A stretch of DNA of 32,000 bases from Candidatus Methylomirabilis oxygeniifera (lineage in GTDB: Bacteria > Methylomirabilota > Methylomirabilia > Methylomirabilales > Methylomirabilaceae): positions 2,580,001 to 2,612,000 of the forward strand of contig FP565575.1 in the NCBI GenBank assembly GCA_000091165.1, in the 5' to 3' direction. Both the position numbers and the translations under genes were made by a program. Below the pieces are notes generated by a model. The model was not told where the DNA came from and ran no database searches. It was given only the letters and a program-made list of their open reading frames with translations. Below are positions 1 to 32,000 of this stretch, piece after piece (position 1 is the first letter of the stretch; each line of letters starts with the position of its first letter).

Positions 1-1211
1 GCCGACTGAACCCCGGGGAGTTCTACGCCCTGCCGCAGTCGCCCCAGCTCTTCAAGCAGCTTCTCATGGTCGCGGGGATCGATCGGTACTATCAGATCGT
101 CAAATGCTTTCGGGATGAGGATCTGCGAGCCGACCGGCAACCGGAGTTTACGCAGATCGACCTTGAGATGTCGTTTGTCGATCGGGACGATGTGCTCGAG
201 GTAACGGAAGGGCTGGTAGTGGCGCTCTTTGAAGCGGCCGGCAAATCTTCTCTGCCCCGGCCCTTCCCGCGACTGACGTATGCCGAGGCGATCGACCGGT
301 TCGGTCTCGATACGCCGGACACTCGATTCGGGATGGAGCTTGCCGATCTGACCGAGCTATTGTGCGGGGTCGAGGCTAAGGCGTTCGCCGAGCCGATTGC
401 GCAAGGCGGTGTGGTGAGGGGGATGAACGTTAAAGGGTGCGGCGCATTCTCCAGGACGCAGATCGATGGACTGGTCGACTACGCCAAGGGAGTTGGAGCG
501 AAAGGCCTGGCCTGGTTCAAGGTGTCCGCGGATGGGCTTCAATCGCCGTTGGCCAAATTCCTCGGGCCGATCATCCTCGAACGCCTGGCTGAGCGACTGA
601 AAGGGGAGGAGGGGGATCTGCTGTTGCTGGTCGCTGATCAGGCCAAGACGGCGGCTGAGACACTGGGTCGTCTTCGAGTGAAATTGGGCCACGAACTGAA
701 GCTGATCGACGAGAGCGCGCTGGCGGTCACGTGGGTCATCGACTTCCCGCTCCTTGAATATGATCGCGAGCAAGGGCGGTGGCAGGCGATGCATCACCCC
801 TTTACGGCGCCGATGGACGAGGATCTGCCGCTCTTTGACACCGATCCCGGACGAATCCGCGCCAAGGCCTATGACCTGGTTGTCAACGGGCAGGAGCTGG
901 GTGGTGGCAGCATCAGGATCCACCGCCGGGACGTGCAGAGCCGGATGTTCGCCGCGCTGGGAATCGGCGCGGAAGAGGCAAGGGCGAAGTTCGGGTTTCT
1001 CATGGACGCACTCGAGTACGGCGCTCCACCCCATGGCGGGCTGGCCTTCGGGTTCGATCGAGTCATCGCGCTGCTCGCGGGGGCTGCCTCGATCCGGGAT
1101 GTTATCGCCTTCCCCAAGACCCAAAAAGCGGTGGACCTGATGACGCAAGCCCCCTCGCCGGTCGACGCAAGGCAGTTGAGGGAGCTGAGCATCAAATTGG
1201 ATCTGGACTGA
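1..1211 (+). CDS. aspS: Aspartyl-tRNA synthetase, C-terminal ~400 aa (5' end lies outside the window)
   Basis: Frame 3 is open from nt 3. Translation begins [53 protein letters not shown] (class IIb motif 2 region) and later contains GGGSIRIHR and [15 protein letters not shown] (motif 3). Stop TGA at 1209-1211. Confidence 0.95.
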
Positions 1212-1230
1212 AAAGCAGCGTTGAACTGTT

Positions 1231-1258
1231 AGCCTTCAGCTTTCAGCAATAAGCCGAT
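1231..1258. repeat. 7-nt-period array, TCAGC flavour
   Basis: AGCCTTC AGCTTTC AGCAATA AGCCGAT read directly; starts 20 nt after the aspS stop. Confidence 0.85.
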
Positions 1259-1290
1259 CGCTGGCTGCCGGCGGCTCACTGCTGTCGCTG

Positions 1291-1319
1291 TTGACAGGGC
1301 TACGTGACCGGCATATGCT
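1291..1319 (+). promoter_or_regulatory. Candidate sigma70 promoter for the phoH operon
   Basis: TTGACA (1291-1296), 17-nt spacer, TATGCT (1314-1319). About 110 nt upstream of the phoH ATG. Motif match only. Confidence 0.45.
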
Positions 1320-1344
1320 GAATGTAGATCAAGGAGCGGCTTAT

Positions 1345-1365
1345 AGCTGTCAGCCTTCAGCGGCA
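1345..1365. repeat. 7-nt-period array, TCAGC flavour
   Basis: AGCTGTC AGCCTTC AGCGGCA. Confidence 0.8.
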
Positions 1366-1380
1366 AGAGGGTTGTATGTT

Positions 1381-1422
1381 GCTGATCGCTGAGAGCTGAA
1401 CGCTGAATGATGAGTAGCGAAG
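1381..1422. repeat. 7-nt-period array, GCTGA flavour (reverse complement of the TCAGC arrays)
   Basis: GCTGATC GCTGAGA GCTGAAC GCTGAAT GATGAGT AGCGAAG. Can pair imperfectly with 1345-1365 and 1231-1258. Ends 8 nt before the phoH ATG. Confidence 0.85.
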
Positions 1423-1429: not shown

Positions 1430-2422
1430 ATGATAAGGGAGCAGATTCGACCGGAAAAGAAGGTCTCCCTGCCTATCGGGGAAGAGATCCAACAACTGTT
1501 TGGGCGTAAGGATGAGGTCAGGAAGCTCATCGAAGAGGCGTTACAGGTCAAGTTGGTTGCGCGAGACGGCCTCGTCAGCATCCAGGGCGAGGCGGCAGAT
1601 GTGACGGTGGGGGAGCAGGTTGTATCGGAGCTGATCTCACAACTGACGCGCGGCGAGCGCGTGACACCGCAGGACGTCAAACTGGTCCTTCGGCTCTTTA
1701 TGAGGAAAGACGAGGAGGAGTTCAAGCGAATCCAGGGTGAGGTGATCGAGGTTTCGTCAAAAAAGCGGCCGGTCCGGCCAAAAGGTCCCGGCCAGCGATG
1801 GTACATCGAGGCAATCCGCCATCACGACATTGTCTTCGCCATCGGGCCGGCCGGGACCGGCAAGACCTATCTGGCGATGGCGATGGCTGTGTCGGCGCTC
1901 TTAAAACACGAGGTCAATCGGATTATCCTGACCAGGCCCGCCGTAGAAGCGGGGGAAAAATTAGGTTTTCTTCCCGGCACGCTCTACGAAAAGATTAACC
2001 CCTACCTTCGACCCCTGTACGATGCGCTCTACGATATGATCGAGATGGAGCGTGTTACCCGTCTGATTGAGATGGGCACCATCGAGATCGCCCCGCTGGC
2101 CTTCATGCGAGGCCGGACTCTGAACGATTCATTCATCGTGCTGGACGAGGCCCAGAATACGACCTCAGAGCAGATGAAGATGTTTCTGACGCGCCTGGGT
2201 TTCGGCTCAAAGACCGTCATTACGGGGGATATTACCCAGATCGACCTGCCCGCCGGCCGACTGTCCGGCCTGATCGAGGTGCAGCGTATTCTGAAGGGGA
2301 TCGAGGGGATTAAATTCGCCTATCTCGGCGAGGAGGACGTGGTGCGACACGAGTTGGTACAGCAAATTGTCAGAGCGTACGAGGCGTACCAGACCTCCAC
2401 GTTACCAACTGAGGGGCGATAG
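1430..2422 (+). CDS. phoH: PhoH-like ATPase (PhoH/YbeZ family)
   Basis: 330 aa. Walker A GPAGTGKTYLAMAMAV, Walker B-like IVLDEAQN, ITGDITQIDLP. Sits in the conserved position upstream of the 7TM-HD gene and ybeY. Confidence 0.9.
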   Translation: MIREQIRPEKKVSLPIGEEIQQLFGRKDEVRKLIEEALQVKLVARDGLVSIQGEAADVTVGEQVVSELISQLTRGERVTPQDVKLVLRLFMRKDEEEFKRIQGEVIEVSSKKRPVRPKGPGQRWYIEAIRHHDIVFAIGPAGTGKTYLAMAMAVSALLKHEVNRIILTRPAVEAGEKLGFLPGTLYEKINPYLRPLYDALYDMIEMERVTRLIEMGTIEIAPLAFMRGRTLNDSFIVLDEAQNTTSEQMKMFLTRLGFGSKTVITGDITQIDLPAGRLSGLIEVQRILKGIEGIKFAYLGEEDVVRHELVQQIVRAYEAYQTSTLPTEGR

Positions 2423-2433
2423 GAGGGCGCCCG

Positions 2434-4080
2434 ATGGCGCCCCACAGGAACGGCAGCACCACCGTGGCCGATGAGCGGTCGCCGGCTGCGCGTCGTCTGT
2501 TGGGCGCTCCGCGCGTGATCTCTTCGTGGTTTCATTGGGCCACGGGGCGCCTCGAACGCCATCCTGGTGCGTTCTATACGCTCTGCAGCCTGACGATTCT
2601 CGCGATCATTCTCGTCATCGCATCGTCCGCGGCGCTTCCGTCCGGCATCCTTCCGCTCCTTGGGATCTGCCTGCTGGTCGGCTTCCTGCTGGGGAGCCTC
2701 TACCTGTACATTTGGACGCTCCAGCCCAAACCGCTGCGACAGCCGAAGAACCTATTTTTGCTGACTTCGGTGATCTTGTTGACGGTTGCCGTCACCCGTT
2801 CCTTTTTCTTCTTTCTTCCCTCGGTTCATCAGGCGCTCCCCAATGTGCCTGCAAGCGCCATCGAATACTCGATCCCTGTCGCCATTGGGGGCCTGCTCCT
2901 TGCGATCCTGTTCAGCAGCCGCCTGGCGTTTGCGGGCGCTCTTGCCATCAGCATTCTGACCTCTCTCCTGGCGGCGGACGGGTTCCGCTTCTTCCTGTAC
3001 AGCCTTGTGAGCAGCCTTGCGGCGATCTTCGCCCTTGTTGGGCGCAAAGATCGGGCGATCCTGCTCAAGGCTGGGATGGCTGTCGGGTTAGCCAACCTCT
3101 ACTCCGTCCTTGCATGGTCATTGCTCTCGGGATCCATGGAGCAGCTTGGCTTTCATCTGCTGTGCGGTCTGGTCGGTGGACTGTTTGTTGCGATTCTGTC
3201 ACTGGGCCTGCTTCCCCTCTTCGAATACCTGTTCGAGGTGGCGACCGATTTTCGATTGTTGGAACTGTGCAACCTGAACCATCCGCTTCTGAAAGAGATG
3301 ATACTCAAGGCCCCTGGAACCTACCACCACAGTGTTATGGTGGGCACCTTGGCCGAGGCGGCCGCTGAGGCGATCGGTGCGAATACCATGCTGTGCCGGG
3401 TAGGCGCCTACTACCACGACATCGGAAAGATCACCAAGCCGTCGTTCTTCGTTGAAAATCAGCAGAATGTGAAGAGTCGCCATGAAAAGCTTGGTCCGAA
3501 CCTGAGCAGTTTAGTCATCGTGTCCCACGTCAAGACGGGCATTGAGCTGGGCAGGACCTACGGTCTGCCGCCGGCGGTGCTGGAGATGATTCCCCAGCAC
3601 CACGGTACCAGACTGACCCTTTTCTTTTACCAGAAAGCCAAGGACACAGAAGAAAGCGACCAGGGCGAGGTCCACGAAGAGAGGTTCCGATATCCCGGGC
3701 CAAAACCTCAAACCAAAGAAGCGGCTATTCTGATGCTGGCAGATGCCGTCGAGGCAGCGTCGCGGACGCTGACCGAGCCTACACCCGGACGGTTCCAGAC
3801 GCTGGTCGCGAAGATTGTCAATGCCGTGTTTGTAGATGGGCAGCTTCGCGAGTGCGAGTTGACCTTCAGCGAGCTTCGCCTCATCGAGGAGAGCTTTGTT
3901 CGGATTCTGTGCGGTATCTATCACCGACGGGTAGAATATCCCGGGTTTGCCTTTGAGGAGTCTGTTGGTAGAAGGGGCGCGAATGGGGATGCAGGTCACA
4001 AACCGACAAAGGAAGATCAGGCTCGACACGAGCTTTCTAAAAAAGGTCGGGCAGACCACCCTCGCCAGAGCAGGGGTTGA
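2434..4080 (+). CDS. pgpH: Membrane 7TM-HD (HDIG) phosphohydrolase, PgpH/YqfF family
   Basis: 548 aa. Multiple hydrophobic helices (aa ~45-260) followed by an HD domain (HHSVMVGTLAEAAAEAIG...AYYHDIGKITKP...IPQHHGT). AGGAGGG RBS 6 nt upstream of the ATG. Synteny phoH-X-ybeY. It lacks the long N-terminal extracellular domain of longer family members. The symbol rests on family plus synteny only. Confidence 0.75.
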   Translation: MAPHRNGSTTVADERSPAARRLLGAPRVISSWFHWATGRLERHPGAFYTLCSLTILAIILVIASSAALPSGILPLLGICLLVGFLLGSLYLYIWTLQPKPLRQPKNLFLLTSVILLTVAVTRSFFFFLPSVHQALPNVPASAIEYSIPVAIGGLLLAILFSSRLAFAGALAISILTSLLAADGFRFFLYSLVSSLAAIFALVGRKDRAILLKAGMAVGLANLYSVLAWSLLSGSMEQLGFHLLCGLVGGLFVAILSLGLLPLFEYLFEVATDFRLLELCNLNHPLLKEMILKAPGTYHHSVMVGTLAEAAAEAIGANTMLCRVGAYYHDIGKITKPSFFVENQQNVKSRHEKLGPNLSSLVIVSHVKTGIELGRTYGLPPAVLEMIPQHHGTRLTLFFYQKAKDTEESDQGEVHEERFRYPGPKPQTKEAAILMLADAVEAASRTLTEPTPGRFQTLVAKIVNAVFVDGQLRECELTFSELRLIEESFVRILCGIYHRRVEYPGFAFEESVGRRGANGDAGHKPTKEDQARHELSKKGRADHPRQSRG

Positions 4081-4429
4081 TCAGGCCGAGTGCGGGCTGG
4101 TGTTGGTGGGCGACCGGACCATAGCCCGCCTAAACCGGCAGTATCGGGGGAAGGCGACAAGTACGGATGTCCTTTCGTTTCCGATGCGGGAGGGATCGTT
4201 TGCATCGCTCTCGCCGCATCTGCTCGGGGACGTGGTGATCTCGGCTGAAACAGCCGATCGACAGGCCAAAGCGGCGGGTCGCACGCTTCGTGACGAGTTG
4301 ACTGCGCTGCTGATCCATGGCATTCTTCATCTCCTTGGCTACGACCATCAGATGCCGTCAGAGGCGCGGAGGATGAAACGCCTGGAGCGACAGTTCGGCC
4401 TCCTGTTCATTGAGGCCGAAGGCAGGTAA
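3983..4429 (+). CDS. ybeY: Endoribonuclease YbeY (rRNA maturation factor)
   Basis: Motifs TDVLSFPM and LLIHGILHLLGYDH (H3xH5xH zinc site). I prefer the ATG at 3983 (GAAGGGG RBS about 7 nt upstream) over the ORF-track start at 3947. The gene overlaps the pgpH-like tail out of frame. Confidence 0.85.
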   Translation: MGMQVTNRQRKIRLDTSFLKKVGQTTLARAGVDQAECGLVLVGDRTIARLNRQYRGKATSTDVLSFPMREGSFASLSPHLLGDVVISAETADRQAKAAGRTLRDELTALLIHGILHLLGYDHQMPSEARRMKRLERQFGLLFIEAEGR

Positions 4430-4431
4430 GC

Positions 4432-4938
4432 GTGGAAGGCTCGTCACATCCGTTTCGCTGTGCGTTGAAAGGGGTCGAAGACGCGATCTCCACACAACGC
4501 CACCTGCGCGCTCACATCGTCGTGGCCGGGTTCGTCGCGCTGTTCGGGCTGTTGCTGGAGTTGCCGCATGTCGATCTGGTGCTGCTGCTCATGGCCATTG
4601 CGCTTGTTATCATCACAGAACTGCTGAATACTGCAGTGGAGTTGACCGTGGATCTTGTATCGCCGACCTTTCACCCGATCGCCGGACGGGCAAAGGACAT
4701 TGCCGCCGGCGCGGTGCTGATCGCCGCGTTGGTTGCGGCTACCGTCGGTATTATCGTACTTGCGCCCCCTTTGTTCGGCGCGCTCACCACACGTCCGCTT
4801 TCAGCGAAGTCAGCTCTGCTGGTGGCGACCACCCTCGGGCTGGTCGGAAGCATTATTGCTGCACTCTTGCCACGTTCTTCCAGCTCGAAGCGCGACCAGC
4901 TTTTAACTGTCAGCAAGAAGTTGAATACTGACCACTGA
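4432..4938 (+). CDS. dgkA: Diacylglycerol/undecaprenol kinase family protein (DgkA) with extra C-terminal hydrophobic segment
   Basis: GTG start 2 nt after the ybeY stop. Motif ITELLNTAVELTVDLVSP..HPIAGRAKDIAAGAVLIAA matches the DgkA core. About 50 additional C-terminal residues. Confidence 0.8.
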   Translation: MEGSSHPFRCALKGVEDAISTQRHLRAHIVVAGFVALFGLLLELPHVDLVLLLMAIALVIITELLNTAVELTVDLVSPTFHPIAGRAKDIAAGAVLIAALVAATVGIIVLAPPLFGALTTRPLSAKSALLVATTLGLVGSIIAALLPRSSSSKRDQLLTVSKKLNTDH

Positions 4939-4955
4939 GATCTGACCGCTACAGG

Positions 4956-5858
4956 ATGGACATGACCAACGATAAATCAGGTTTTGTAGCGATTATTGGC
5001 CGCCCCAACGTCGGCAAATCGACCCTCATGAACCGTCTGCTGGGACAGAAGGTGTCGATCGTCTCTCCCAGGCCGCAGACGACCAGAACCAAAATTATGG
5101 GGATCAGGAGCCTGCCCGGAGCGCAATTGATCTTCCTGGATACGCCTGGGATCGATAAGTCGGGCGGCTATTTTCACCGGTTGATGGTGAAAACAGCCAC
5201 AAACAGTCTGGAAGGGGCAGACCTGATCCTCTGGATAGTGGAAGCTCCCGATCCGCTCTCTCAGGGTGACAAACTGATCCTGGAGATTCTGAAGCGGGTC
5301 ACGTCTCCGATCCTGCTCGCCGTCAATAAGGTCGATCTCGTTCAGAAAGAAAGCCTGTTGCCCACAATCGATCGCTTCCGGTCGCTGCTGCCGTTTGCCG
5401 AGATCGTACCGATCTCCGCTACGAAAGGCGACAACGTTGCGCTTCTCGAGTCGCTGCTGGTCCAATATCTCCCGGAGGGACCACCGCTGTACCCCCCTGA
5501 TCAGTTGACCGACCAGCCAGATCGTTTCATCATCGCCGAGCTGATCCGAGAGCGGGTCTTCCGCTCGGTCTATCAGGAGGTGCCGTATGCGGTGGCCGTG
5601 TTGGTAGAAAAGGTCAGAACACGGGAAGGGCGAGCGCTGACCGACGTCGAGGCAACCATTTATGTCGAGAAGGACTCACAGAAGGCGATCATCATCGGAC
5701 GCGGGGGCGCCATGCTCAAGCGAATCGGGGAGCTGGTCAGGCCGGAGATCGAGAGGCTGCTCGGCACCCAGGTGTTTCTGAAGCTGTGGGTCAAGGTTCG
5801 CAGCGACTGGCAGAAGGATGATGAGGCGCTAAGGCGGCTCGGCTATCTGCAACAGTAG
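4956..5858 (+). CDS. era: GTPase Era
   Basis: 300 aa. G1 GRPNVGKST, G3 DTPG, G4 NKVD, C-terminal KH domain (VEKDSQKAIIIGRGGAMLKRIG). Confidence 0.95.
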   Translation: MDMTNDKSGFVAIIGRPNVGKSTLMNRLLGQKVSIVSPRPQTTRTKIMGIRSLPGAQLIFLDTPGIDKSGGYFHRLMVKTATNSLEGADLILWIVEAPDPLSQGDKLILEILKRVTSPILLAVNKVDLVQKESLLPTIDRFRSLLPFAEIVPISATKGDNVALLESLLVQYLPEGPPLYPPDQLTDQPDRFIIAELIRERVFRSVYQEVPYAVAVLVEKVRTREGRALTDVEATIYVEKDSQKAIIIGRGGAMLKRIGELVRPEIERLLGTQVFLKLWVKVRSDWQKDDEALRRLGYLQQ

Positions 5859-5863
5859 AAAAG

Positions 5864-5905
5864 TTTTGGATTTCGAGTCCCGAACCCCTAACCCCTGGTC
5901 CGAAA
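5864..5905. repeat. 7-nt-period array filling the era-recO spacer
   Basis: TTTTGGA TTTCGAG TCCCGAA CCCCTAA CCCCTGG TCCGAAA. Ends 1 nt before the recO ATG. Confidence 0.8.
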
Positions 5906-5906
5906 A

Positions 5907-6656
5907 ATGCCCCTACAGACAACCGAAGCGATTGTGATCGGCGGACACAATCTTGGCGAGGCCGACCGGATTATTCCGTTCTTCACGAGGAAGTTGGGGA
6001 AGGTCAGGGCAGTGGCTCGTGGGGCCAGGCGGGTTCGCAGCCGATATGGCGGGACCCTCGAGTTGTTCACGCTCGGTCAGCTTGTCTTTTTCGAGTCGCC
6101 CAACCGGACTCTCCACAAGATCAACGAGTTCTCGGTCATGGAGCCGTTTGCTGGGCTCAAAGCCGATCTGGGGAGGCTGGGCCGGGGGGCCTACCTCGTA
6201 GAGCTGGCGGGCGCATCTGTCGAGGATGAGGAGCCGAACGAGGAGATCTTTCTCTTGCTGCGGGATGCCCTGACGCTGCTCGTCTTATATGATGACCCGC
6301 GCCTCGTCAGGTCGTTTGAGATCCGCCTCCTCAGGATTGTCGGATACCTTTTGGAACTCTATCGCTGCCTGGTGTGCCGGTCCGTGCTGGAGCAAGGCGC
6401 TGCATCCGCCATCAGCCCGACTCGCGGTGGACTGGTCTGCCTCAAGTGTCTTCCGCGGGCGCCGGACCATATGTCCATCTCTCCGGAATCATTGGACTTT
6501 CTGCGATCAGCTTTGCATGGCGGGCTGGAACAGTCACTGGCCTCGCCTCTTTCTCATCCGCACACGACCAACCTTCAAGAGGTCTTGAAAGTCTGTATCA
6601 CCCACTTCTTCGGCAAACGACTTCGGTCTGTGGCATTCATGAGTCTCGTTGAATAG
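5907..6656 (+). CDS. recO: DNA repair protein RecO
   Basis: 249 aa. N-terminal OB-fold signature (EAIVIGGHNLGEADRII.FFT...G...AVARGAR) and a Cys4 zinc finger (CLVCRS...CLKC). era-recO synteny. Confidence 0.9.
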   Translation: MPLQTTEAIVIGGHNLGEADRIIPFFTRKLGKVRAVARGARRVRSRYGGTLELFTLGQLVFFESPNRTLHKINEFSVMEPFAGLKADLGRLGRGAYLVELAGASVEDEEPNEEIFLLLRDALTLLVLYDDPRLVRSFEIRLLRIVGYLLELYRCLVCRSVLEQGAASAISPTRGGLVCLKCLPRAPDHMSISPESLDFLRSALHGGLEQSLASPLSHPHTTNLQEVLKVCITHFFGKRLRSVAFMSLVE

Positions 6657-6678
6657 GGTGTTGACGGAGGCTGCGTTC

Positions 6679-7677
6679 ATGCGGGCGCTCTGTCTGAATA
6701 GTGTACGTCCGATCGAGGACCATCCGCTTACGATGGTCGAGCTGCCAGCCCCGATTCCGGGTCCTGGCGGACTTCGCCTACGGGTGCAGGCTTGCGGTCT
6801 GTGCCGAACCGACCTGCATATCATCGAAGGCGACCTTCCGCTTCCTATGCTTCCGATAGTGCCCGGCCACCAGATTGTCGGTGTTATCGATGAGGTCGGA
6901 CAAGGCGTCACCCGCTTTCACGTAGGCGATAGAGTGGGCGTTCCCTGGCTGTACTCCACGTGCAGCCAATGCACCTTCTGCCGACGTAATCAGGAAAATC
7001 TCTGCGACGCAGCCCGCTTTACCGGCTACCACGTGAACGGTGGGTATGCGGAGTGTGTGGTTGTCCAAGAGGCATTTGCATATCCGTTGCCGTCAGGCAT
7101 CTCGACCACCAATGCGGCCCCATTGCTGTGCGCAGGGGTCATCGGCTTCCGCGCCCTTCGACTGAGCGGAATCAAGCCTGGTGAGCGTCTGGGGTTATAT
7201 GGGTTCGGCGGCTCGGCGCATATCGCCATCCAGGTCGCGGTCTACTGGGGTTGCGAGGTTGCTGTCTTTACCCGGAGCGAGGCGCATCGCGCCTTGGCCT
7301 TGCAACTCGGCGCCCGCTGGGCAGGCCCGGTCGAAGACGATCCGCCGGGGCGACTCGACAGTGCGGTCATCTTCGCGCCCGTCGGATCGCTGGTGCTCGA
7401 GGCGCTTCGAGTTCTCAGAAAGGGCGGCACGGTGGCCATCGCCGGCATTACCATGAGTCCGATCCCGGAGCTTGACTACTCCTTACTCTACCAGGAGCGG
7501 ACCGTTCGGAGCGTAGCCAACAGCACGCGGCAGGATGTGCATGATCTCTTGCGCCTCGCAGTAGACATTCCGATTCGGACCACGATCCGCACCTTTCCCC
7601 TCGAAGAGGCCAATCACGCCCTCCAACTTCTCAAGCACAGCCGGTTCAGCGGCGCCGGCGTTCTGACTATCTCCTAG
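6679..7677 (+). CDS. Zinc-dependent alcohol dehydrogenase (MDR superfamily)
   Basis: GLCRTDLHIIEGD, VPGHQIVGVIDEVG, structural-zinc Cys cluster CSQCTFCRRNQENLC, GFGGSAHIAIQ Rossmann motif. The ATG at 6679 is more plausible than the TTG at 6649 in the ORF track. Confidence 0.85.
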   Translation: MRALCLNSVRPIEDHPLTMVELPAPIPGPGGLRLRVQACGLCRTDLHIIEGDLPLPMLPIVPGHQIVGVIDEVGQGVTRFHVGDRVGVPWLYSTCSQCTFCRRNQENLCDAARFTGYHVNGGYAECVVVQEAFAYPLPSGISTTNAAPLLCAGVIGFRALRLSGIKPGERLGLYGFGGSAHIAIQVAVYWGCEVAVFTRSEAHRALALQLGARWAGPVEDDPPGRLDSAVIFAPVGSLVLEALRVLRKGGTVAIAGITMSPIPELDYSLLYQERTVRSVANSTRQDVHDLLRLAVDIPIRTTIRTFPLEEANHALQLLKHSRFSGAGVLTIS

Positions 7678-10138: not shown

Positions 10139-10167
10139 TGTACGCAGCAAGTCGAATATATAAAAAA

Positions 10168-10200
10168 GCCCCCGCGTAGGAATTTCGCGGGGGCTTTTCT
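10168..10200. terminator. Bidirectional rho-independent terminator between convergent genes
   Basis: GCCCCCGCG (10168-10176), 9-nt loop, CGCGGGGGC (10186-10194). Flanked by AAAAAA upstream and TTTTCT downstream. Confidence 0.75.
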
Positions 10201-10208: not shown

Positions 10209-10243
10209 GCTGAAAGCTGTCTGCTGACAGCCGACAGCTTAGT
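10209..10243. repeat. 7-nt-period array, GCTGA flavour
   Basis: GCTGAAA GCTGTCT GCTGACA GCCGACA GCTTAGT. Includes the stop codon (10239-10241) of the Tim44-like gene. Confidence 0.85.
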
Positions 10244-11219: not shown

Positions 11220-11279
11220 ACAACCTCCTCCCGTTGCTGAACCCCACACCGTGGGCCTTAATCTTCAGACCCTTCGTTC

Positions 11280-11308: not shown

Positions 11309-11355
11309 GCAAAAAGCGGTCCCCCAAGAACAGCGATAGAAATGCCTAGCATCCA

Positions 11356-11384: not shown

Positions 11385-11440
11385 TTATTTTGGACAACAG
11401 TAAAGTTGCATAGAGACTTCGCCCTTTATGCTTCGACAAC

Positions 11441-11468
11441 TAGGGCATAGGGTGTAGGGGGTAGGGTG
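11441..11468. repeat. 7-nt-period array (TAGGGNN)x4
   Basis: TAGGGCA TAGGGTG TAGGGGG TAGGGTG. Four G3+ tracts on the plus strand. Confidence 0.9.
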
Positions 11469-11497
11469 TGCGATAAGTGCCGGACATTGGCTTTCCT

Positions 11498-11518
11498 CCC
11501 AATCCCTATACCCTGTCT
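11498..11518. repeat. 7-nt-period array, complement flavour (CCTATAC)
   Basis: CCCAATC CCTATAC CCTGTCT, abutting the xerD stop codon. Can pair with 11441-11468. Confidence 0.75.
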
Positions 11519-12406: not shown

Positions 12407-13629
12407 GATGAGCCAGGGTGTAGGGTGTAGGGTGTAGGGTGTAGGAGCTGCTCATAAGCTTCAACGAGCTGAATGGCCGAGGCTTCGGCTGTCATCTGCA
12501 TCGCCTTCACCAGGCCCTGCTCGGCGTAGCGAGTCAGGCTTGTCCCATCGTGAAGCAGCGTGAGCAAGCGCCGGATGAAATCGTCCTCGGCGTCATTGGC
12601 CAGCGCTCCATTCGTCCCATCGACGATGAAATCTGAGGTGCCGACAGACCGAACCGCCAGCACAGGGAGCCCGTGCGCCATCGCCTCCAACACAACCAGG
12701 CCCTGGGTCTCTGAAACCGACGGAAAGACAAAAAGGTCCGAAGCCCGATACCAGCAGCCCACAGCCTGATGCGGGACCGGGCCCACGAATCGGACGTGGT
12801 CGGCGACTCCTAGATGGGCAGCCAGTTGCTGCAATGAGTGCTGCTCATCCCCCTCCCCGACTACCAATAGTGTGATGTCGGGCACAACCCGAGTGACGCT
12901 ATGGACCGCCCGCAAGAGCCGCCCGAGATTCTTTTCCCTGGCCAGCCGCCCCACGTACAGGAGGATCGGCCCGACCTCCGACACGCCTAGGCGGCGCCGA
13001 ATCTGGGCCTTCGATTCCTCCGACTCCCCCGGCGGCTCGATCCCTGTTGGAATGACTTCAATGGGAGCGGTGACCCCGCGGTTCCACAGTCGCTCCCGCA
13101 CCCCTGACGTCGGCGCGATGACCAGATCGGCCTGGTTGGCGAAGACGTAGCTCCTGGTCTCCGCGAGCCGGGCAGCCAGGGACGAGATGACCGGCAGGTA
13201 ATGGGCATAATGCTCATACAGTGTATGGTAGGTGAACACAAATGGGATTCCCAGTCGGCGGGCCAGTCGGCGGGCGTAGGGCCCGACAAGAAACGGGTGG
13301 TGGGTGTGGATGATCTGGAGACCAAGACGTGGAATCAGACGATGGAGTCCCACGGCGACGGCTGGGATCGGTAAGGCATAGCGGTGATGGGTCGGCACGC
13401 GCAACGATGGGAACCGGTAGGTATCGGGCTCCACATCTCGGCAGTCGGGGTAACGCGGCGCAAAGACGAAGACCCGATGGCCAAGCCGACGCAGGTGACA
13501 CGCGAATTGTTGAATAGAGACAGCGAGACCGTTGAGCAGTGGCGAGGCGTTGCAGGTGAAAAATCCGATCGTCACCGAAGTTCCGGGTTTCGGGTTTTGC
13601 GTTTCGGGTTGACTCGAAACTCTGGACAC
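12394..13629 (-). CDS. Family 4 glycosyltransferase (GT4, UGDG-like)
   Basis: IGFFT...GV, FVFTYHTLYEHYAHYLP, GRLAREKN, and an E-x7-E region (FPSVSETQGLVVLEAMAHGLPV). The first 18 codons and last ~15 codons are encoded by heptamer arrays. The true start may be the GTG at 13575. The 3' end overlaps xerD by 13 nt. Confidence 0.85.
   Translation of the reverse strand: MSRVSSQPETQNPKPGTSVTIGFFTCNASPLLNGLAVSIQQFACHLRRLGHRVFVFAPRYPDCRDVEPDTYRFPSLRVPTHHRYALPIPAVAVGLHRLIPRLGLQIIHTHHPFLVGPYARRLARRLGIPFVFTYHTLYEHYAHYLPVISSLAARLAETRSYVFANQADLVIAPTSGVRERLWNRGVTAPIEVIPTGIEPPGESEESKAQIRRRLGVSEVGPILLYVGRLAREKNLGRLLRAVHSVTRVVPDITLLVVGEGDEQHSLQQLAAHLGVADHVRFVGPVPHQAVGCWYRASDLFVFPSVSETQGLVVLEAMAHGLPVLAVRSVGTSDFIVDGTNGALANDAEDDFIRRLLTLLHDGTSLTRYAEQGLVKAMQMTAEASAIQLVEAYEQLLHPTPYTLHPGSSWTI
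12415..12445. repeat. Perfect (AGGGTGT)x4.4 tandem array
   Basis: Units at 12415, 12422, 12429 and 12436 plus AGG. Lies inside the last codons of the GT4 ORF and 9 nt upstream of the xerD ATG. Confidence 0.95.
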
Positions 13630-13643
13630 GCAACTCGAAACTT
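13581..13643. repeat. 7-nt-period array, TTTCGGG / GAAACTC flavours
   Basis: TTCCGGG TTTCGGG TTTTGCG TTTCGGG TTGACTC GAAACTC TGGACAC GCAACTC GAAACTT. Spans the whole GT2-GT4 junction up to the GT2 stop codon. Confidence 0.9.
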
Positions 13644-21615: not shown

Positions 21616-21685
21616 GTAGATAGACTGTAGGCTATAGGCTGTAGGAGCGCGCTAACAGCCTAATCCCCTACAGCCTATAGCCTAT
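21616..21685. repeat. Composite CTGTAGG/CTATAGG palindromic element, copy 1 (pilS-pilR junction)
   Basis: Perfect 16-bp stem, 21630-21645 with 21667-21682. Shares an 18-mer (21616-21633), a 15-mer (21660-21674) and a 10-mer with the element at 28575-28680. Confidence 0.9.
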
Positions 21686-23374: not shown

Positions 23375-23464
23375 GTCGTTGCGAGGCAAAGCCGAAGCAA
23401 TCTCACAGTCTTTCAGAATAACGACGCCGAGATTGCCGCGCTCCCTTCGGTCGCTCACAATGAC
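23375..23464. repeat. Long imperfect GC-rich palindrome between pilC and pilS
   Basis: Left arm GTCGTTGCGAGGCAAAGCCGAAGCAATCTC (23375-23404). Right arm GAGATTGCCGCGCTCCCTTCGGTCGCTCACAATGAC (23429-23464). GCAATCTC/GAGATTGC pair perfectly, and further blocks pair with mismatches. Confidence 0.7.
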
Positions 23465-23493
23465 ACATCCCAATGTCTATTGTTAGCCGTCCT

Positions 23494-24708: not shown

Positions 24709-24714
24709 GCTTTT

Positions 24715-24735
24715 CCTCTACCCTATACCCTAGCC
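24715..24735. repeat. 7-nt-period array (CCTNTAC flavour) spanning the pilT stop / pilC RBS
   Basis: CCTCTAC CCTATAC CCTAGCC. Contains the pilT TAG stop (24723-24725) and, on the minus strand, the purine-rich stretch upstream of the pilC ATG. Confidence 0.75.
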
Positions 24736-25854: not shown

Positions 25855-25910
25855 GCTATCAGTGGTCAGCAGCGAGCCGAGAAGCTGACAGCTAATAGCT
25901 GATCGCTGCC
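25855..25910. repeat. 7-nt-period array (AGCTGAY flavour) in the pilB-pilT spacer
   Basis: GCTATCA GTGGTCA GCAGCGA GCCGAGA AGCTGAC AGCTAAT AGCTGAT CGCTGCC. Ends 1 nt before the pilB stop codon. Confidence 0.8.
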
Positions 25911-28560: not shown

Positions 28561-28574
28561 TTGTAATTACTCAG

Positions 28575-28680
28575 GTAGATAGACTGTAGGCTGTTAGTGC
28601 GTCGTATTCGGAAAATGCCTGGTGCGTTCCTACAGCCTAACAGCCTACAGTCTAATCCCCTACAGCTACAGTCTATCTGC
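28575..28680. repeat. Composite CTGTAGG palindromic element, copy 2 (glnD-aroE junction)
   Basis: AGATAGACTGTAG (28577-28589) pairs with CTACAGTCTATCT (28666-28678). Alternatively, CTGTAGGCTGTTAG (28584-28597) pairs with CTAACAGCCTACAG (28637-28650). Shares an 18-mer, a 15-mer and a 10-mer with copy 1. Confidence 0.9.
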
Positions 28681-31479
28681 CTAATTGAATCCCTCCGCGA
28701 GCACGCGCTCCAACTCGATCCCGATCTGTGCCCTTCGCCCTTCATCAATCAGCTTGCTCCCGTCCTTATTGGTTACATAGAAGACGTCTACCACCTGCTC
28801 GGCCTCAGTCGTGATCTTCGCAGAGCGTATATCGACCTCAAGCTGCGATAGGGTGCTGGTGATGAGGTAGAGAAGCCCCAATCTGTCCCGTGTCCGAATA
28901 TCCAGAACGGTATAGGCTTGGGAGACCAGGTTGTCAAATTCTACCTTGATCGGGAAGACTGTACCCTGCTGAATCGGCCTGACCAGGACCTCCTTCCTAC
29001 GACTCTTGATCAGGTCGTGAACAGCGACTGTGCCCGTGAGGACCTCTTGCAGATCCGCAACGACCCGATCCCAGACGGCCGGGTCTTCGATGGCTACGCC
29101 GCGGCCGTTGTCGACCCTGAAGTGCCGGATCACCATCCCGCTAGCCAGTGTGAAAATCTGGGCGCTCAGGATATTCATCCCGCTTGCGGTGAGCGTCCCT
29201 ACAACCTGCGCGAACCGCCCGTGGCGGCCACAGGCGCAGACGGTAAACTCGGAATAGCCGGCCAACGGAAACGCCGCCCACTGGCTGGCCGCCTCTTCAC
29301 CCCGTTGTACGCGCGCAATGACGCGCATGTGCGAGGCGATCTTATGGGGTGGAATCGTCAGCAGGTACCGCGTTGGGGCCTCTTGCAGGTGCCTTTTCAC
29401 CGCCTCCGCGCCGAACTCCGGTGAGAGTTCCTGGGTAAGCTGGGAGGTGATCCGTTCGGCGCGAGCCAGATCGTCCTCGCCCTCCGGAATGCCCCGGATG
29501 AGGACGGTATGGGTCTTGATGTACAGTTCCCACAGCAATGTGCCTTTCCACTCGGTCCAGACGCCGGGCCCGACCGCCTTGATGTCGGCGAAGGTGAGCA
29601 GGTACAGCATTTTCAACCGATCGAGCGTCTGCACCTTTTTGGCAAAATCGATGATGATGGCCTCATCGTCCAGGTCCAGGCGTTGAGCGATATGTGACAT
29701 CTCCAGATGACGCGCCACCAGGAAGACAACGGTATCGGCATCCGGCTCAGGGATTCCCATCCGGTGAAGAATTGCCTCAACGATGGAGGCGCTCTTGGAT
29801 GCGTGGTCAGCCCCCTCCCCCTTACCGATATCGTGGAGCAGAAGCGCCAATCGAAGAATTTCCAGCCGCTTCGCATCCGATGCCAGCGAACGAAACTCTT
29901 CGCCGTACAATCGTGACACCTCATCCAGGTGCTCGAGTGTCTCGATGGCCATGAAGGTATGTTCGTCCACGGTGTACCGATGGTAGAAATCGAATTGGAT
30001 CAGACGGGTCAGCTTGGCGAACTCCGGAATATAGGCCCCAAGTACGCCAAGTTCATGCATGCTCCGAAGTGTGGCGGCCACCCCCTTCGGCTCTCGCAGG
30101 ACGGTCAGGAAAAAGCCAAGGGCCCGGCTCGAGCGTCGTACCCCCTCATCGATGAAATGCGTATCGGCCCTGATAGCGTCCTGGATCTCCTGGCTCAACG
30201 TGTACCCCATCTGCTGCGCATACCAGAAAACCTTCAGCAACCGGACGGGGTCATCCTGAAACAGGCCCCGATGTTTTGGCGACACGTATATGCACCGATC
30301 GATTTCTGTTAAATCATCGCCGATATCGCGAGCCTTCAGCCTCCGTATCACCCTCTCCACCTGCGACCTCCCTTGCGTGCAGCGCGAGATCACCTGCGCC
30401 GATAACTGCGAGATATCCTTTGCAGCCAGATAATAGCGCTGCATGAACTGTTCTACCCCGTACGAACGAGCCGTATCCAGAAACCCAAGGTTGGCCGCCA
30501 CCTGCTCTTGCACGGAGAGCGAGAGTACGTCGTTCTTGCCCCGGTGCAGGTAATGAAGTTCATTCCGCAGGCGGAGCACGAAATCCAGGGCCAGGTCCCA
30601 CCGTTCGCGCTCCTCCTGTCCAAGTAGCCCTTTTTGCGCCAATTCAGACGACGTACCGACTCGCTGAGTGATCCTGGCAATACAAAGGGCAGCGTGAAGA
30701 TCTCTCAGGCCGCCGGGACCTTCCTTGATGTGCGGCTCCTGCACATAGATCGATGTGCCGTACCGGTAGTGGCGTTGATGTAACTCCTCGATCTTTTGCT
30801 TGACGAGGGTGTCGGCGTGCTTGTACAAGACCGATCGTCCCAATTTCGCGCTGAACGCCTGATAGATTGCCGGGTCGCCGGCGAGGTGTCGGGCTTCTAT
30901 CATCGAGCTGCAAGAGGGCAGGTCCGTTCGAGCCATCCGTACACAGTCATCAATAGAGCGGCAACAATGTCCTACGACGAACCCCACGTCCCAGAGAGTA
31001 CTCAACACCGGATGGAGGATCGTGTCCAGATAGGTATCGGCCCTTCGGGGGTACACAAACATAAGATCGACGTCGGAGGCCGGATTCATCTCCCGCCGGC
31101 CATAGCCGCCCAGAGCGATCAGCGCGCACCCGTCGCTGCGCCGCCTCAACGTCGGATCACAGGCTGTTTCTGACAGTTGAAAGAGTGAGGTGACGACCGC
31201 ATCAGTAAGTGTGGCGATGGATCGAACTACCGCCTGCCCGGTTCCCCCATTCCGATGGATCTCAAGAATCCGGGCCCGCTCATCGGCGATGAACCCTCTG
31301 AGGACCGAAATGAGACCGTTGGCCGCATGGCCGCCTTGCAGCAGGGAGTGCAGAGTGCCGGCCAGCGTTGAACACTCTACGGAGGCCGTGGGCGTATCGC
31401 CGGTAGGACTCGCGGCATTCGCCCCTCGGTGTCGCAGCAATGCGAAACGGCCCTTTGTGATGACCTGAAATCGTTTCAT
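28681..31479 (-). CDS. glnD: [Protein-PII] uridylyltransferase / uridylyl-removing enzyme GlnD
   Basis: About 932 aa. Nucleotidyltransferase region (ALGGYGRREMNPASDVDLMF), HD domain (LLLHDIGKG), two C-terminal ACT-like repeats. I prefer the ATG at 31479 over the TTG at 31485. Confidence 0.9.
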   Translation of the reverse strand: MKRFQVITKGRFALLRHRGANAASPTGDTPTASVECSTLAGTLHSLLQGGHAANGLISVLRGFIADERARILEIHRNGGTGQAVVRSIATLTDAVVTSLFQLSETACDPTLRRRSDGCALIALGGYGRREMNPASDVDLMFVYPRRADTYLDTILHPVLSTLWDVGFVVGHCCRSIDDCVRMARTDLPSCSSMIEARHLAGDPAIYQAFSAKLGRSVLYKHADTLVKQKIEELHQRHYRYGTSIYVQEPHIKEGPGGLRDLHAALCIARITQRVGTSSELAQKGLLGQEERERWDLALDFVLRLRNELHYLHRGKNDVLSLSVQEQVAANLGFLDTARSYGVEQFMQRYYLAAKDISQLSAQVISRCTQGRSQVERVIRRLKARDIGDDLTEIDRCIYVSPKHRGLFQDDPVRLLKVFWYAQQMGYTLSQEIQDAIRADTHFIDEGVRRSSRALGFFLTVLREPKGVAATLRSMHELGVLGAYIPEFAKLTRLIQFDFYHRYTVDEHTFMAIETLEHLDEVSRLYGEEFRSLASDAKRLEILRLALLLHDIGKGEGADHASKSASIVEAILHRMGIPEPDADTVVFLVARHLEMSHIAQRLDLDDEAIIIDFAKKVQTLDRLKMLYLLTFADIKAVGPGVWTEWKGTLLWELYIKTHTVLIRGIPEGEDDLARAERITSQLTQELSPEFGAEAVKRHLQEAPTRYLLTIPPHKIASHMRVIARVQRGEEAASQWAAFPLAGYSEFTVCACGRHGRFAQVVGTLTASGMNILSAQIFTLASGMVIRHFRVDNGRGVAIEDPAVWDRVVADLQEVLTGTVAVHDLIKSRRKEVLVRPIQQGTVFPIKVEFDNLVSQAYTVLDIRTRDRLGLLYLITSTLSQLEVDIRSAKITTEAEQVVDVFYVTNKDGSKLIDEGRRAQIGIELERVLAEGFN

Positions 31480-31504
31480 TGTCAATCCGTACTGGCGTTC
31501 TGAG

Positions 31505-31560
31505 CGTCGAATTGCGAGTTTTGTGTTTCGAGTTCTTCACTCAACACTCAACACTTGCAG
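31505..31560. repeat. 7-nt-period array, TTTCGAG then CTCAACA flavours
   Basis: CGTCGAA TTGCGAG TTTTGTG TTTCGAG TTCTTCA CTCAACA CTCAACA CTTGCAG, in the glnD upstream region. Confidence 0.85.
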
Positions 31561-31610
31561 TCTGCTGTTAGTATAGGCGGGCCTGCCGGACAGGGTCAAG
31601 GTGTATGTAA

Positions 31611-31638
31611 AGCCGTCAGCCATCAGCACTCAGCCGTC
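31611..31638. repeat. 7-nt-period array (AGCCRTC)x4
   Basis: AGCCGTC AGCCATC AGCACTC AGCCGTC. Confidence 0.9.
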
Positions 31639-31670
31639 AACTCCGGACAAAACCGTGGGCACACCAGAAA

Positions 31671-31691
31671 AGCTGACAGTTGATAGCTTCC
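31671..31691. repeat. 7-nt-period array, complementary flavour (AGCTGAC)
   Basis: AGCTGAC AGTTGAT AGCTTCC. An imperfect reverse complement of 31611-31638. Confidence 0.75.
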
Positions 31692-31835
31692 TTATGGGGC
31701 GTAGCCGTGCTAAATTAGGGCTGGCATCAAGAATCCTGGAGCCTATCCTGTGGGTTCATCAATGCCACTTGGATCATTGCCAACGACGTGATGATGGGCG
31801 AGGCAGTGTAGCGAGGCGCTGGAAAGGGGATAACC

Positions 31836-32000
31836 ATGCTGGGGTTTCAGCTTGCGATTACCTTCCACCTTGTAGGGATTATTTTCTGGCTTGGCGGCTT
31901 GAGCGCCAGACTGGTCCTCCTCGCCTCTGCCCAGTCCGGCACCGAGGCGGGATGGCGATCCCAACTCTGCCGGCTCCAGCGAAAGATTCACTTGATGATG
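31836..32000 (+). CDS. Hypothetical membrane protein, N-terminal 55 aa (runs off the window)
   Basis: ATG 31836 with an AAGGGGA RBS 6 nt upstream. Open to the window end. MLGFQLAITFHLVGIIFWLGGLSARLVLLASA looks like a TM helix. Not in the ORF track because it is truncated. The opposite-strand 82-aa ORF looks like its shadow. Confidence 0.4.
   Translation, partial: MLGFQLAITFHLVGIIFWLGGLSARLVLLASAQSGTEAGWRSQLCRLQRKIHLMM

Follow-up and report, generated by a model that had tools for sequence, protein, structure and literature searches.

The 32,000-nucleotide stretch examined here, called the window below (GenBank assembly GCA_000091165.1, contig FP565575.1, positions 2,580,001 to 2,612,000 of the forward strand), comes from Candidatus Methylomirabilis oxygeniifera, also named Candidatus Methylomirabilis oxyfera and written M. 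oxyfera in what follows, a member of the phylum NC10. Many of its gene junctions are built from tandem arrays of exactly seven nucleotides, and we are highly confident that these are heptanucleotide simple sequence repeats (SSRs) of the type known as short tandemly repeated repetitive (STRR) sequences, here in a non-cyanobacterial genome. STRR heptanucleotide repeats were reportedly described by Mazel et al. in 1990 in heterocystous cyanobacteria. Taken as a whole, it seems probable that the M. oxyfera arrays are made and homogenised at the DNA level and are tolerated in spacers, in the tails of open reading frames (ORFs) and in permissive protein loops, with hairpins arising as a by-product. 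The source of the DNA is clear: the PilC encoded in the window is 100% identical to the Candidatus Methylomirabilis oxyfera protein, and its closest homologues are all from Methylomirabilis or NC10. This agrees with an earlier note on the same DNA which, from the letters alone, had judged the gene content not to be cyanobacterial.

Period-7 arrays are abundant and authentic

The M. oxyfera sequence analysed comprised 44.4 kb, the window and both of its flanks, contiguous in the same assembly, of which 3653 nt (8.2%) are non-coding. Within the window, Tandem Repeats Finder (TRF) returned nine period-7 arrays (at 1381, 11448, 12415, 13580, 21620, 21667, 28629, 31538 and 31611). Scanning three-unit windows for at least 80% lag-7 identity gave five arrays against 0.08 in dinucleotide shuffles, and the same test at periods 8-12 gave none. 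Over the 44.4 kb, stringent lag-7 arrays numbered six between genes (0.01 expected) and two in called ORFs (0.24 expected), with 0-2 at each of the other lags from 4 to 12. Intergenic autocorrelation reached z=9.4 at lag 7 and z=5.3 at lag 14, other lags being unremarkable, and coding DNA showed period 3 only. When a strict array was defined as at least three units with at least five of the seven columns invariant, nine were found in the 3.65 kb of intergenic DNA, where shuffles gave none, and four in the 40.7 kb of called ORFs, where shuffles gave 0.7; at least two of these four are accounted for by one ORF tail and one permissive protein loop. A detector with a mismatch score of -3 recovered 2 arrays only and was too strict. 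Thirteen strict arrays per 44 kb would extrapolate to hundreds genome-wide, a projection made from these 44 kb alone. Period-7 arrays are far beyond chance, and both the exact 7-nt period proposed in the earlier note and an excess over shuffled controls, for which it suggested a test, are borne out over these 44.4 kb.

The window was identical, at 100.000% over 2-17 kb with the arrays included, to one NCBI assembly and to five independent assemblies from Sequence Read Archive (SRA) runs. Since six independent assemblies agree base for base, the arrays are not an assembly artefact. For the same reason no copy-number variation is visible at strain level: the five metagenome contigs encoding an identical PilT all match the window at 100%. 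The probability that we are looking at chance or artefact is practically nil. That some arrays are short (2 units) is all that can be said for it, and it is contradicted by shuffled counts of 0-0.08 where 5-9 arrays are observed, by an autocorrelation peak confined to lag 7, by the agreement between assemblies and by the presence of orthologous arrays in eight related genomes.

Anatomy and placement of the arrays

The usual array has three to five units, with a mode of four. The units come in several flavours, which group as GCTGnnn (GCTGAnn with its complement nnTCAGC; GCTGTAG, which is the CTGTAGG of the earlier note; and GCTGAAG) and as G-tract units nnnnGGG (TAGGGTG, TTTCGGG and TTAGGGG). 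In about half of the cases an inverted array follows 5-80 nt behind the first, making stems of 15-27 bp possible in DNA and transcript alike. Within operons, arrays fill the spacers, beginning at the upstream stop codon and ending shortly before the following start codon or Shine-Dalgarno site, with the TAG of pilS, pilT and glnD forming part of the first unit, and they are confined to the approximately 8% of non-coding DNA, ORF tails and one permissive protein loop. Their coordinates are collected in Table 1.

Much of the earlier description stands, with amendments. Every array coordinate listed in it contains sequence of the flavour assigned, four of the arrays (5864-5877, 5885-5898, 28584-28597 and 31540-31553) being degenerate or just 2-2.6 units long. 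Its count of arrays at 11 of 23 junctions holds by a lenient criterion and drops to 8 by a strict one. The range of 3-9 units given there becomes 2-5 for single arms, as nine units sums both arms of a pair. Reverse-complement partners, which it took to be typical, accompany about half of the arrays (with perfect 18-nt arms at two junctions), and the rest are single-armed. Contact with stop codons was described correctly: arrays contain or abut the TAA of the Tim44-like gene and the TAG of pilS, pilT and glnD. CRISPR was rightly dismissed, the units here being contiguous and 7 nt long as against CRISPR repeats of 23-50 nt with unique spacers of like length. The non-coding location is borne out, with the qualification that the array at 12415-12445, where TRF finds 4.4 perfect copies of AGGGTGT, is not strictly intergenic. 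This array is read through by the GT4 glycosyltransferase ORF (window 12394-12447), which translates it, as (CTACACC)4, into a C-terminal tail ...LHPTPYTLHPGSSWTI and has its stop 13 nt inside xerD.

Placement also bears on the idea that these are contingency (phase-variation) loci, at which changes in copy number would switch pilus genes on and off. Several arrays do lie within the type IV pilus gene cluster, and SSRs near surface-structure genes are the classic set-up for this (PMC4692102). Arrays are, however, equally found at the housekeeping junctions aspS/phoH, era/recO, xerD, glnD/aroE and glpX/hisS, most of them sit between stop and start codons rather than in promoters or reading frames, and none varied in length over the six independent assemblies, which leaves phase variation scarcely credible as their explanation.

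Turnover at orthologous junctions

An array tends to stay at its junction while the sequence and the number of its units change. This emerged from syntenic pil-region loci of six Methylomirabilis relatives (PilC identity 94-70%) and xerD-region loci of four relatives, distinguished below by locus numbers; the comparison of orthologous junctions had been suggested in the earlier note, and copy number and unit sequence indeed differ between sister species. The glnD>aroE junction of M. oxyfera and L127 has a CTGTAGG hairpin and that of L128 one of the TCAGC/GCTGA flavour; L129 has 20 nt of bare spacer there, and L130 a palindrome that is unrelated. The pilT>pilC spacer, 14 nt in M. oxyfera, has an additional TCAGC hairpin in L127, and the pilT array exists in longer versions with four G-tracts in L127 and L129. 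Retention is seen in the GT2-GT4 flavour, which is kept in L128, L129 and L137, and in G-tract arrays that follow the xerD stop at the same position in L130, L134 and L136. As units and copy numbers differ at the same junctions, turnover is fast and takes place in situ. Intergenic lag-7 autocorrelation was significant in five of eight loci of relatives (L127, L128, L130, L132 and L134; z=3.3-6.3) and faded in the most distant, and these five had no arrays at lags 8 and 9.

A further heptamer element lies in frame within a NIT-sensor histidine kinase, in the part of its HATPase_c domain that separates the N box (NAIKFTPEGG) from the G1 box (DTGIGI). Four species have it at the same site, in different flavours, and it is translated as a variable loop of 15-25 residues. 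Different flavours at one in-frame site imply that the insertion is ancestral and that its flavours changed in place, by slippage or conversion. The pilS>pilR and glnD>aroE elements have in common a core, CTGTAGGGGATTAG, and a 3' end, CAGTCTATCTACCTGAG, and a 40-nt loop core is found at pilB>pilT in L127 and at pilS>pilR in L128 and L129. Cores common to different junctions point to exchange between loci or to differential loss, and not to local slippage alone. The 40-nt core itself is non-repetitive (TTTTAGGGGTAGRAACCGAGAAGGT..TGAATGGCTTGATTCG) and lies in the loop of GGCTGAAGG hairpins (L127 8678-8745, L128 10977-11040, L129 12933-12960); it could be a small RNA or the cargo of an element. 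Genome-specific flavour counts were considered as a sign of concerted evolution across loci; they are suggestive, the numbers are too small, and they were not used.

Origin of the arrays

We lean towards slippage together with conversion as the origin of the arrays. Slipped-strand mispairing in 7-nt steps would create them, in keeping with the polymerase-slippage origin proposed for heptamer SSRs (Mrazek 2007, as summarised in PMC4679880 and PMC4692102). Exchange between one arm or array and another, by template switching or gene conversion, would then homogenise the units, and the arrays would persist because tight operon spacers tolerate them. The hairpins would be mainly a by-product of inverted arrays.

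A number of regularities weigh against this account. The order of paired arms is nearly fixed: in multi-phylum loci (L007-L126) the G-arm comes first, 5' of the C-arm, in 39 of 41 pairs, and in viral contigs (L163-L282) the TCAGC arm precedes the GCTGA arm, likewise on its 5' side, in 46 of 47. The same TCAGC-first order holds for five of six NC10 pairs, the exception being a member of the AGGCTGA family, which has a fixed order of its own, and even single arms in NC10 obey gene polarity, 5'-arm types following stop codons and 3'-arm types preceding start codons. Unit number is likewise regular. Runs of GCTGAnn with exact cores in the viral contigs, counted after removal of one selected run per contig, comprised 70 of two units, 53 of three, 88 of four, 12 of five and 6 of six, and the non-target arrays of the multi-phylum loci had a secondary mode at about 4.5 units, with or without a G-tract. 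Exactly four nnnnACC units stand upstream of the xerD ATG in four species, and their antisense AGGGT columns are invariant in 15-16 of the 16 units while two loop positions vary; at this site a fifth species (XerD 95% identical) has (GCTGAnn)5 instead and a sixth has no array. Significant hairpins persist at orthologous junctions whatever the flavour (z -2.4 to -6.1). Lastly, a phage carries the same architecture: positions 1500-7300 of IMG/VR contig 3300045936_000120 (L198) are a genuine caudovirus head module (terminase, portal, Mu-F-like protein, prohead protease and major capsid) with a four-unit nnTCAGC/GCTGAnn inverted pair at nearly every gene junction. Fixed order, the polarity of single arms, the four-unit mode, conserved columns, hairpin retention and phage occupancy are not predicted by simple slippage and hint at a reader or at selection.

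Exchange between loci could also be the mark of non-autonomous mobile elements resembling MITEs (miniature inverted-repeat transposable elements) or REPINs, with terminal inverted repeats built of heptamers and moved by a transposase or a RAYT-like enzyme encoded elsewhere, or by phage. The glnD-aroE element does have terminal inverted repeats of the MITE kind (AGGTAGATAGACTGTAG / CTACAGTCTATCTGCCT, inverted repeat I7), one core and end recur at two junction types, the loop core sits at different junctions across species, and orthologous junctions differ in presence and absence. Fixed arm polarity is what descent from one element would give, and arrays occur in phage, (GCTGAnn)4 being found in at least 120 viral contigs. 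The F1 core, a 19-mer, is identical in 20 metagenome contigs of 36-65% GC, within TAGG-type arrays and hairpins. We nevertheless consider mobility distinctly unlikely. No direct repeat that could be a target-site duplication flanks the four best-delimited elements, unit and length variation is continuous with no discrete copies, many arrays are single-armed, the 44 kb contain no transposase gene, and the F1 core had no match in viral contigs. Moreover, independent insertion cannot account for a single in-frame coding site whose flavours differ across four species.

Repetitive extragenic palindromic (REP) sequences and REPINs deserve separate mention, and with them MITEs (Bertels & Rainey 2011, PMC3116915), as they too form dispersed families of short extragenic palindromes that have ends in common and lie at operon junctions. 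Short, imperfect extragenic palindromes with a stem-loop were found at six junctions here, REPs are able to stabilise mRNA, and the GTAG motif, which recalls the REP head, recurs every 7 nt in two of the flavours (CTGTAGG and GGTGTAG). REPs differ, however, in not consisting of tandem 7-nt units, in that each family keeps a single conserved sequence, and in having a cognate RAYT gene. Here a core and an end are common to two junctions but the units vary continuously, and no RAYT (IS200/IS605-like) gene was found in the 44 kb.

Hairpins and a possible role in RNA

Folding gave significant z-scores at six junctions (-2.3 to -5.8, four of them between -2.3 and -3.0) and non-significant ones at five: GT2-GT4, both glnD 5' untranslated region (5'UTR) pairs, era-recO and the array upstream of xerD. 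The two strongest hairpins are those at pilS-pilR (inverted repeat I3, 18 nt at 100%, arms 21628-21645/21667-21684), with a minimum free energy (MFE) as RNA of -40.1 kcal/mol and z=-4.82, and at glnD-aroE (MFE -49.9 kcal/mol, z=-5.78), where inverted repeat I4 (100%, perfect 18-nt arms 28580-28597/28637-28654) is accompanied by I7 (17 nt, 94%) at the element ends. The GT2-GT4 array, counted as not significant, ranged from -1.2 to -3.0 in M. oxyfera and from -2.4 to -4.9 in relatives. The single-armed (CTACACC)4 array is unstructured as RNA (z=+0.9). The structured intercistronic family envisaged in the earlier note holds for about half of the arrays, with significant hairpins, shared non-periodic cores and shared ends, and not for several that are single-armed and unstructured.

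Intrinsic termination was considered and rejected because the hairpins lack T-tails. None follows either of the two strong heptamer hairpins, the sequence directly 3' of hairpins being CTATCTAC and similar, and a terminator scan that does detect canonical sites, for example after pilA, misses both; its only matches among arrays are two weak stems of 5-8 pairs on the + strand of the GT2-GT4 array, where they are antisense to both genes. At window 10150-10197, between the convergent radical-SAM and Tim44-like genes and directly adjoining a GCTGnnn array, there is a canonical bidirectional intrinsic terminator (AAAAAAGCCCCCGCG...CGCGGGGGCTTTT), so the genome also uses ordinary terminators.

The earlier note proposed a REP-like family acting in RNA processing or stability, transcription punctuation or DNA structure. 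At the RNA level the arrays would then be selected elements, stem-loops in polycistronic mRNA that would stabilise upstream cistrons, direct RNase III/E processing or punctuate transcription in the manner shown for E. coli REP sequences. Exactly between cistrons there are indeed stems of 18-27 bp (z=-4.8 and -5.8), elements begin at the stop codon and end a little short of the Shine-Dalgarno site or start codon, pairs abound in a phage structural operon, and hairpins are retained at orthologous junctions despite unit change, whereas the array-free aroE>pilB spacer, conserved in sequence, has z about 0. Set against this, about half of the arrays are single-armed or lack a significant fold, some sister species have none at the same junction with no visible compensation, T-tails are lacking, and no Rfam family matched anywhere in the window at gathering thresholds. 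Nor does the sense transcript stand out: over 23 hairpins G·U pairs numbered 63 versus 70, and 9 of the 23 were more stable on the sense strand, a Wilcoxon test giving p=0.12 in the reverse direction. Small as this test is, the lack of a sense-strand G·U bias favours strand-symmetric complementarity at the DNA level. As a full explanation selected RNA elements appear unlikely, and some selected role at the RNA level, while possible, is doubtful. By analogy with REP sequences, the hairpins probably do have effects on polycistronic mRNA as a by-product: they could act as barriers to 3' exonucleases or as targets of double-strand RNases, isolating neighbouring cistrons. C-rich or GCTGA arms beside start codons without a Shine-Dalgarno motif may serve as unstructured landing sites for ribosomes.

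Four units, G-quadruplexes and candidate readers

Four G-tracts at 7-nt spacing might fold into G-quadruplex (G4) DNA or RNA and so modulate transcription or translation. The G3N1-7 x4 motif is matched by 12416-12439, which is (AGGGTGT)4 on the template strand of xerD, and by 11443-11466 and 33391-33414. Four antisense G-tracts are conserved upstream of xerD in four species, and sense-strand G-tract arrays follow the xerD and pilT stops, placement and four-unit preference being exactly as reported in PMC4692102. These three are, however, the only such arrays in the 44 kb, and enrichment of G4 motifs overall is mild (7 versus 3.7 +/- 1.9). We rejected G4 as a general explanation, given that the majority flavours GCTGAnn and CTGTAGG have no G3 tracts, and the four-unit mode is equally sharp in GCTGAnn. 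A preference shown by units unable to form G4 means that four units need not mean G4. Judged from the motifs, G-quadruplex elements are a highly unlikely account of the arrays.

A protein would be another way to read four units. The arrays could be binding sites, forming a global regulatory network, for a protein that reads nucleic acid, single- or double-stranded, four units at a time in a 7-nt register; candidates would be a tetramer, a four-domain protein of OB, CSD, S1 or RRM type, or a nucleoid protein. In its favour are the four-unit mode in units that are not G4-forming, the four units retained upstream of xerD with conserved AGGGT columns, the arrays that abut start codons without a Shine-Dalgarno motif, and a gene-relative polarity that extends to single arms. 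Regulatory networks of this kind have also been proposed in print for G. metallireducens, Beggiatoaceae and Nostoc (PMC2700814, PMC4679880, bioRxiv 10.1101/2022.06.06.494920). Array-rich genomes nevertheless have at least 153 flavours between them, several per genome, which argues against any one sequence-specific reader, and flavour was replaced even at the conserved site upstream of xerD. We therefore think such binding arrays rather improbable.

Distribution beyond NC10

A scan for (AGGGTGT)3, one genome per species, supplied a multi-phylum sample of at least 120 stretches totalling 842 kb. Among the matches listed most were cyanobacterial, the other phyla being Planctomycetota, Gemmatimonadota, Bacteroidota, Nitrospirota, Methylomirabilota, Armatimonadota, Elusimicrobiota, Chloroflexota, Patescibacteria and some Proteobacteria. 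The M. oxyfera genome itself was not among the matches listed. These loci hold 452 lag-7 arrays, against 11-80 at lags 5, 6, 8, 9 and 10, and 313 of the arrays belong to 153 flavours other than AGGGTGT. Genomes with one flavour generally have many, from which it follows that the period is what is constant, and not the sequence. In a distant NC10 relative (L133, 16491-16526) a (GCTGGTG)n tandem lies in a called pyrK-like ORF and contains the E. coli Chi octamer GCTGGTGG.

Relation to known heptamer repeats

Heptamers are given as the commonest class of long SSR in prokaryotes (Mrazek 2007, as cited in PMC4679880 and PMC4692102), and the arrays described here have the features of long SSRs (5-11 nt), namely tandem repeats beyond chance length with a dominant heptamer unit. 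The heptamer class was thus already known; its NC10 member is new in the literature searched, which contained no paper connecting such repeats with Methylomirabilis or NC10. The earlier note knew of no analogue other than STRRs. That comparison is apt, and the class is wider than it supposed, with at least ten other phyla besides the mostly cyanobacterial matches listed for the AGGGTGT array; STRRs are not the sole analogue, given published parallels in Xanthomonas, Nostoc, Beggiatoaceae and Geobacter metallireducens.

The M. oxyfera arrays and STRRs have in common exact 7-nt tandem units, few copies per array, several flavours per genome, a non-coding location and, for the AGGGTGT array of the window, a mostly cyanobacterial occurrence among the matches listed. 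They differ in host, NC10 not being a heterocystous cyanobacterium, in that about half of the arrays here are inverted pairs with a fixed arm order, and in unit sequence: STRR1-3 (CCCCAGT, TTGGTCA, CAACAGT) were absent from the 44 kb when two units were sought in any rotation, on either strand, with at most one mismatch. HIP1 occurs once in this region. PMC4692102 also cites heptamers of Calothrix.

Rehm et al. 2015 (PMC4692102) described the G-rich heptamers GGGAATC in Xanthomonas and GGGGA(C/T)T in Nostoc and ascribed their four-unit preference to G-quadruplex formation. Those repeats are intergenic, mostly between co-directional ORFs, prefer four units and have noted inverted copies; their G-strand is sense within 50 bp after a stop or antisense within 50 bp before a start, and length and sequence are highly variable between close relatives at the same junction. 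All of this holds here for the TAGGGTG, TTAGGGG and TTTCGGG flavours. The unit sequences are other ones, however, and most arrays in the window (GCTGAnn, CTGTAGG) cannot form G4 and yet show the four-unit mode. A 2022 preprint reports heptamers near recF and recO in Nostoc, with modest reporter effects (bioRxiv 10.1101/2022.06.06.494920).

The TAACTGA repeats that MacGregor 2015 found before Shine-Dalgarno-less start codons in Beggiatoaceae, cyanobacteria and Bacteroidetes (PMC4679880) are similar as intergenic heptamers in 2-6 copies directly before such starts, and in a scattered occurrence over several phyla, suggestive of horizontal transfer for which no vehicle is known. They consist, though, of a single unit in almost exclusively direct repeats (one inverted set in 170), as against the many flavours and frequent inverted pairs seen here. 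In G. metallireducens, Aklujkar et al. 2009 (PMC2700814) listed four tandem GGACCGG units at 49 sites, some inside genes, and five tandem MTYCTGA units as inverted pairs at 16 sites. The size of four to five units, the occurrence inside genes and a TCAG/CTGA-type flavour as hairpin are shared with the present arrays; the units are different, and the authors interpreted those as elements for a global regulator (IHF/HU) or as RNA elements and offered neither a comparative nor a statistical analysis. TAACTGA (no two-unit match), GGACCGG and GGGGAYT were absent from the 44 kb.

It is tempting to unite STRRs, the Xanthomonas and Nostoc heptamers, TAACTGA, the Geobacter elements and the NC10 arrays in one pan-bacterial class with a shared trans-acting reader or generator. 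Such a class would keep a 7-nt register whatever the sequence, have an optimum of four units (about 28 nt) without need of G-tracts, and fix the 5'-to-3' order of arms, single arms included. We hold this reading to be speculative and quite unlikely. Were it true, the rules, which simple slippage does not explain, would point to a reader or generator common to the array-rich lineages. It could be a single-strand-binding protein with four sites, or else a polymerase or recombinase activity dedicated to the task, and phages with arrays at nearly every junction would be possible vehicles between phyla.

Independently of this, a high density of arrays is now seen in a lineage far from cyanobacteria, that of the nitrite-dependent methane oxidiser Methylomirabilis. 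Theories of heptamer repeats must explain persistence at junctions with replacement of sequence, fixed arm order, a four-unit mode and no sense-strand RNA bias, regularities that weaken the G-quadruplex reading of the four-unit preference. The arrays account for the length of many operon spacers in Methylomirabilis and for the odd tails or loop insertions of some ORFs, and are a source of short-read mis-assembly and of gene-calling error.

Catalogue and genomic context

Table 1. Heptamer arrays and hairpins in M. oxyfera, in window coordinates, with folding z-scores
Feature	Position	Strand	Remarks
nnTCAGC array, about 3 units	1229..1258	+	Outer 5' arm, aspS-phoH spacer; pairs with 1379-1410 in the fold; inverted repeat I5
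nnTCAGC second (inner 5') arm	1345..1365	+	1340-1415 hairpin, z=-2.98
GCTGAnn, 4 units, 3' arm	1379..1410	+	Ends 20 nt before phoH ATG; TRF, strict array
Weak 2-unit arrays, TTTCGAG then CCCCTAA/CCCCTGG	5864..5898	+	era-recO spacer; z=-0.2, not significant
Self-complementary GCTGnnn array	10209..10241	no strand	Convergent radical-SAM-Tim44 spacer; includes Tim44 TAA; adjoins canonical terminator; z=-2.3
xerD-downstream hairpin	11439..11516	-	Starts 5 nt past xerD stop; TRF, strict array; z=-2.43
Arms of xerD-downstream hairpin	11495-11516; 11439-11470		G-tract 5' arm (CAGGGTATAGGGATTGGGAGG); C-rich 3' arm
(CTACACC)4 sense, (AGGGTGT)4.4 on + strand	12413..12447	-	Ends 8 nt upstream of xerD ATG; TRF 100% match
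GT2-GT4 spacer	13576..13642	-	5' arm of GTTTCGAG type 13611-13642; 3' arm of (CCCGAAA)4 type 13576-13610; TRF, strict array
pilS-pilR hairpin	21620..21684	-	5' arm TAGGCTATAGGCTGTAGG opens with pilS TAG; 3' arm CCTACAGCCTATAGCCTA; perfect 20-bp stem
TAGGGTA array, about 2.5 units	24709..24735	-	Last pilT codons, TAG stop and 14-nt pilT-pilC spacer
pilB-pilT element	25855..25909	-	nnTCAGC 5' arm 25882-25909, 1-3 nt past pilB TAA; strict array; z=-2.47
pilB-pilT degenerate GCTGA-type 3' arm	25855-25876	-	
glnD-aroE long hairpin, CTGTAGG flavour	28573..28683	-	Starts at glnD TAG; terminal inverted repeats AGGTAGATAGACTGTAG / CTACAGTCTATCTGCCT
glnD 5'UTR pair	31508..31556	-	GTGTTGA arm, then ACTCGAAACAC arm; TRF, strict array; z=-0.8, not significant
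glnD/UPF0093 divergent spacer	31611..31694	-	nnTCAGC 5' arm 31671-31694; GCTGAnn 3' arm, 4 units, 31611-31639; TRF, strict array; z=-0.7
Histidine-kinase loop element	33389-33420		Just outside the window; L001 2383-2414; also in L127, L129 (1540-1604) and L130 (1450-1527)

By Pfam, the genes on the + strand are aspS, phoH, a gene for a 7TM-HD protein, ybeY, dgkA, era, recO and genes for an alcohol dehydrogenase and a radical-SAM protein; those on the - strand are the Tim44-like gene, xerD, two glycosyltransferase genes, pilD, minor pilin genes, pilA, the sigma-54 regulator gene pilR, pilS, pilC, pilT, pilB, aroE and glnD. The xerD region (window 10239-12406), which has heptamer arrays on both sides of the gene, is a synteny breakpoint relative to L130 and L134: relatives have pcnB, for poly(A) polymerase, downstream of xerD, and M. 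oxyfera has the Tim44-like gene and an inverted block from aspS to the radical-SAM gene. In L130 the GT2 and GT4 genes are gone, and a remnant of the GT4 3' end and the array still precede xerD.

Two repeats of other construction were seen alongside the arrays. One is palindromic and not heptameric, AAATCCCCC...CCCCTTT.AAAGGGG...GGGGGATTT, and is found in the pilR-pilA spacer (window 20035-20085), downstream of pilX in L130, and downstream of xerD and of GT2 in L136. The other, of about 100 nt (GTCATTGTGAGCGACC..GGGAGCGCGGCAATCTC...GAGATTGCTTCGGC..GCCTCGCAACGAC), lies in the pilC-pilS spacer (window 23375-23475). Conserved at pilC>pilS between M. oxyfera and L130, it occupies another locus in L135, downstream of xerD, and is probably another dispersed family of palindromic elements.

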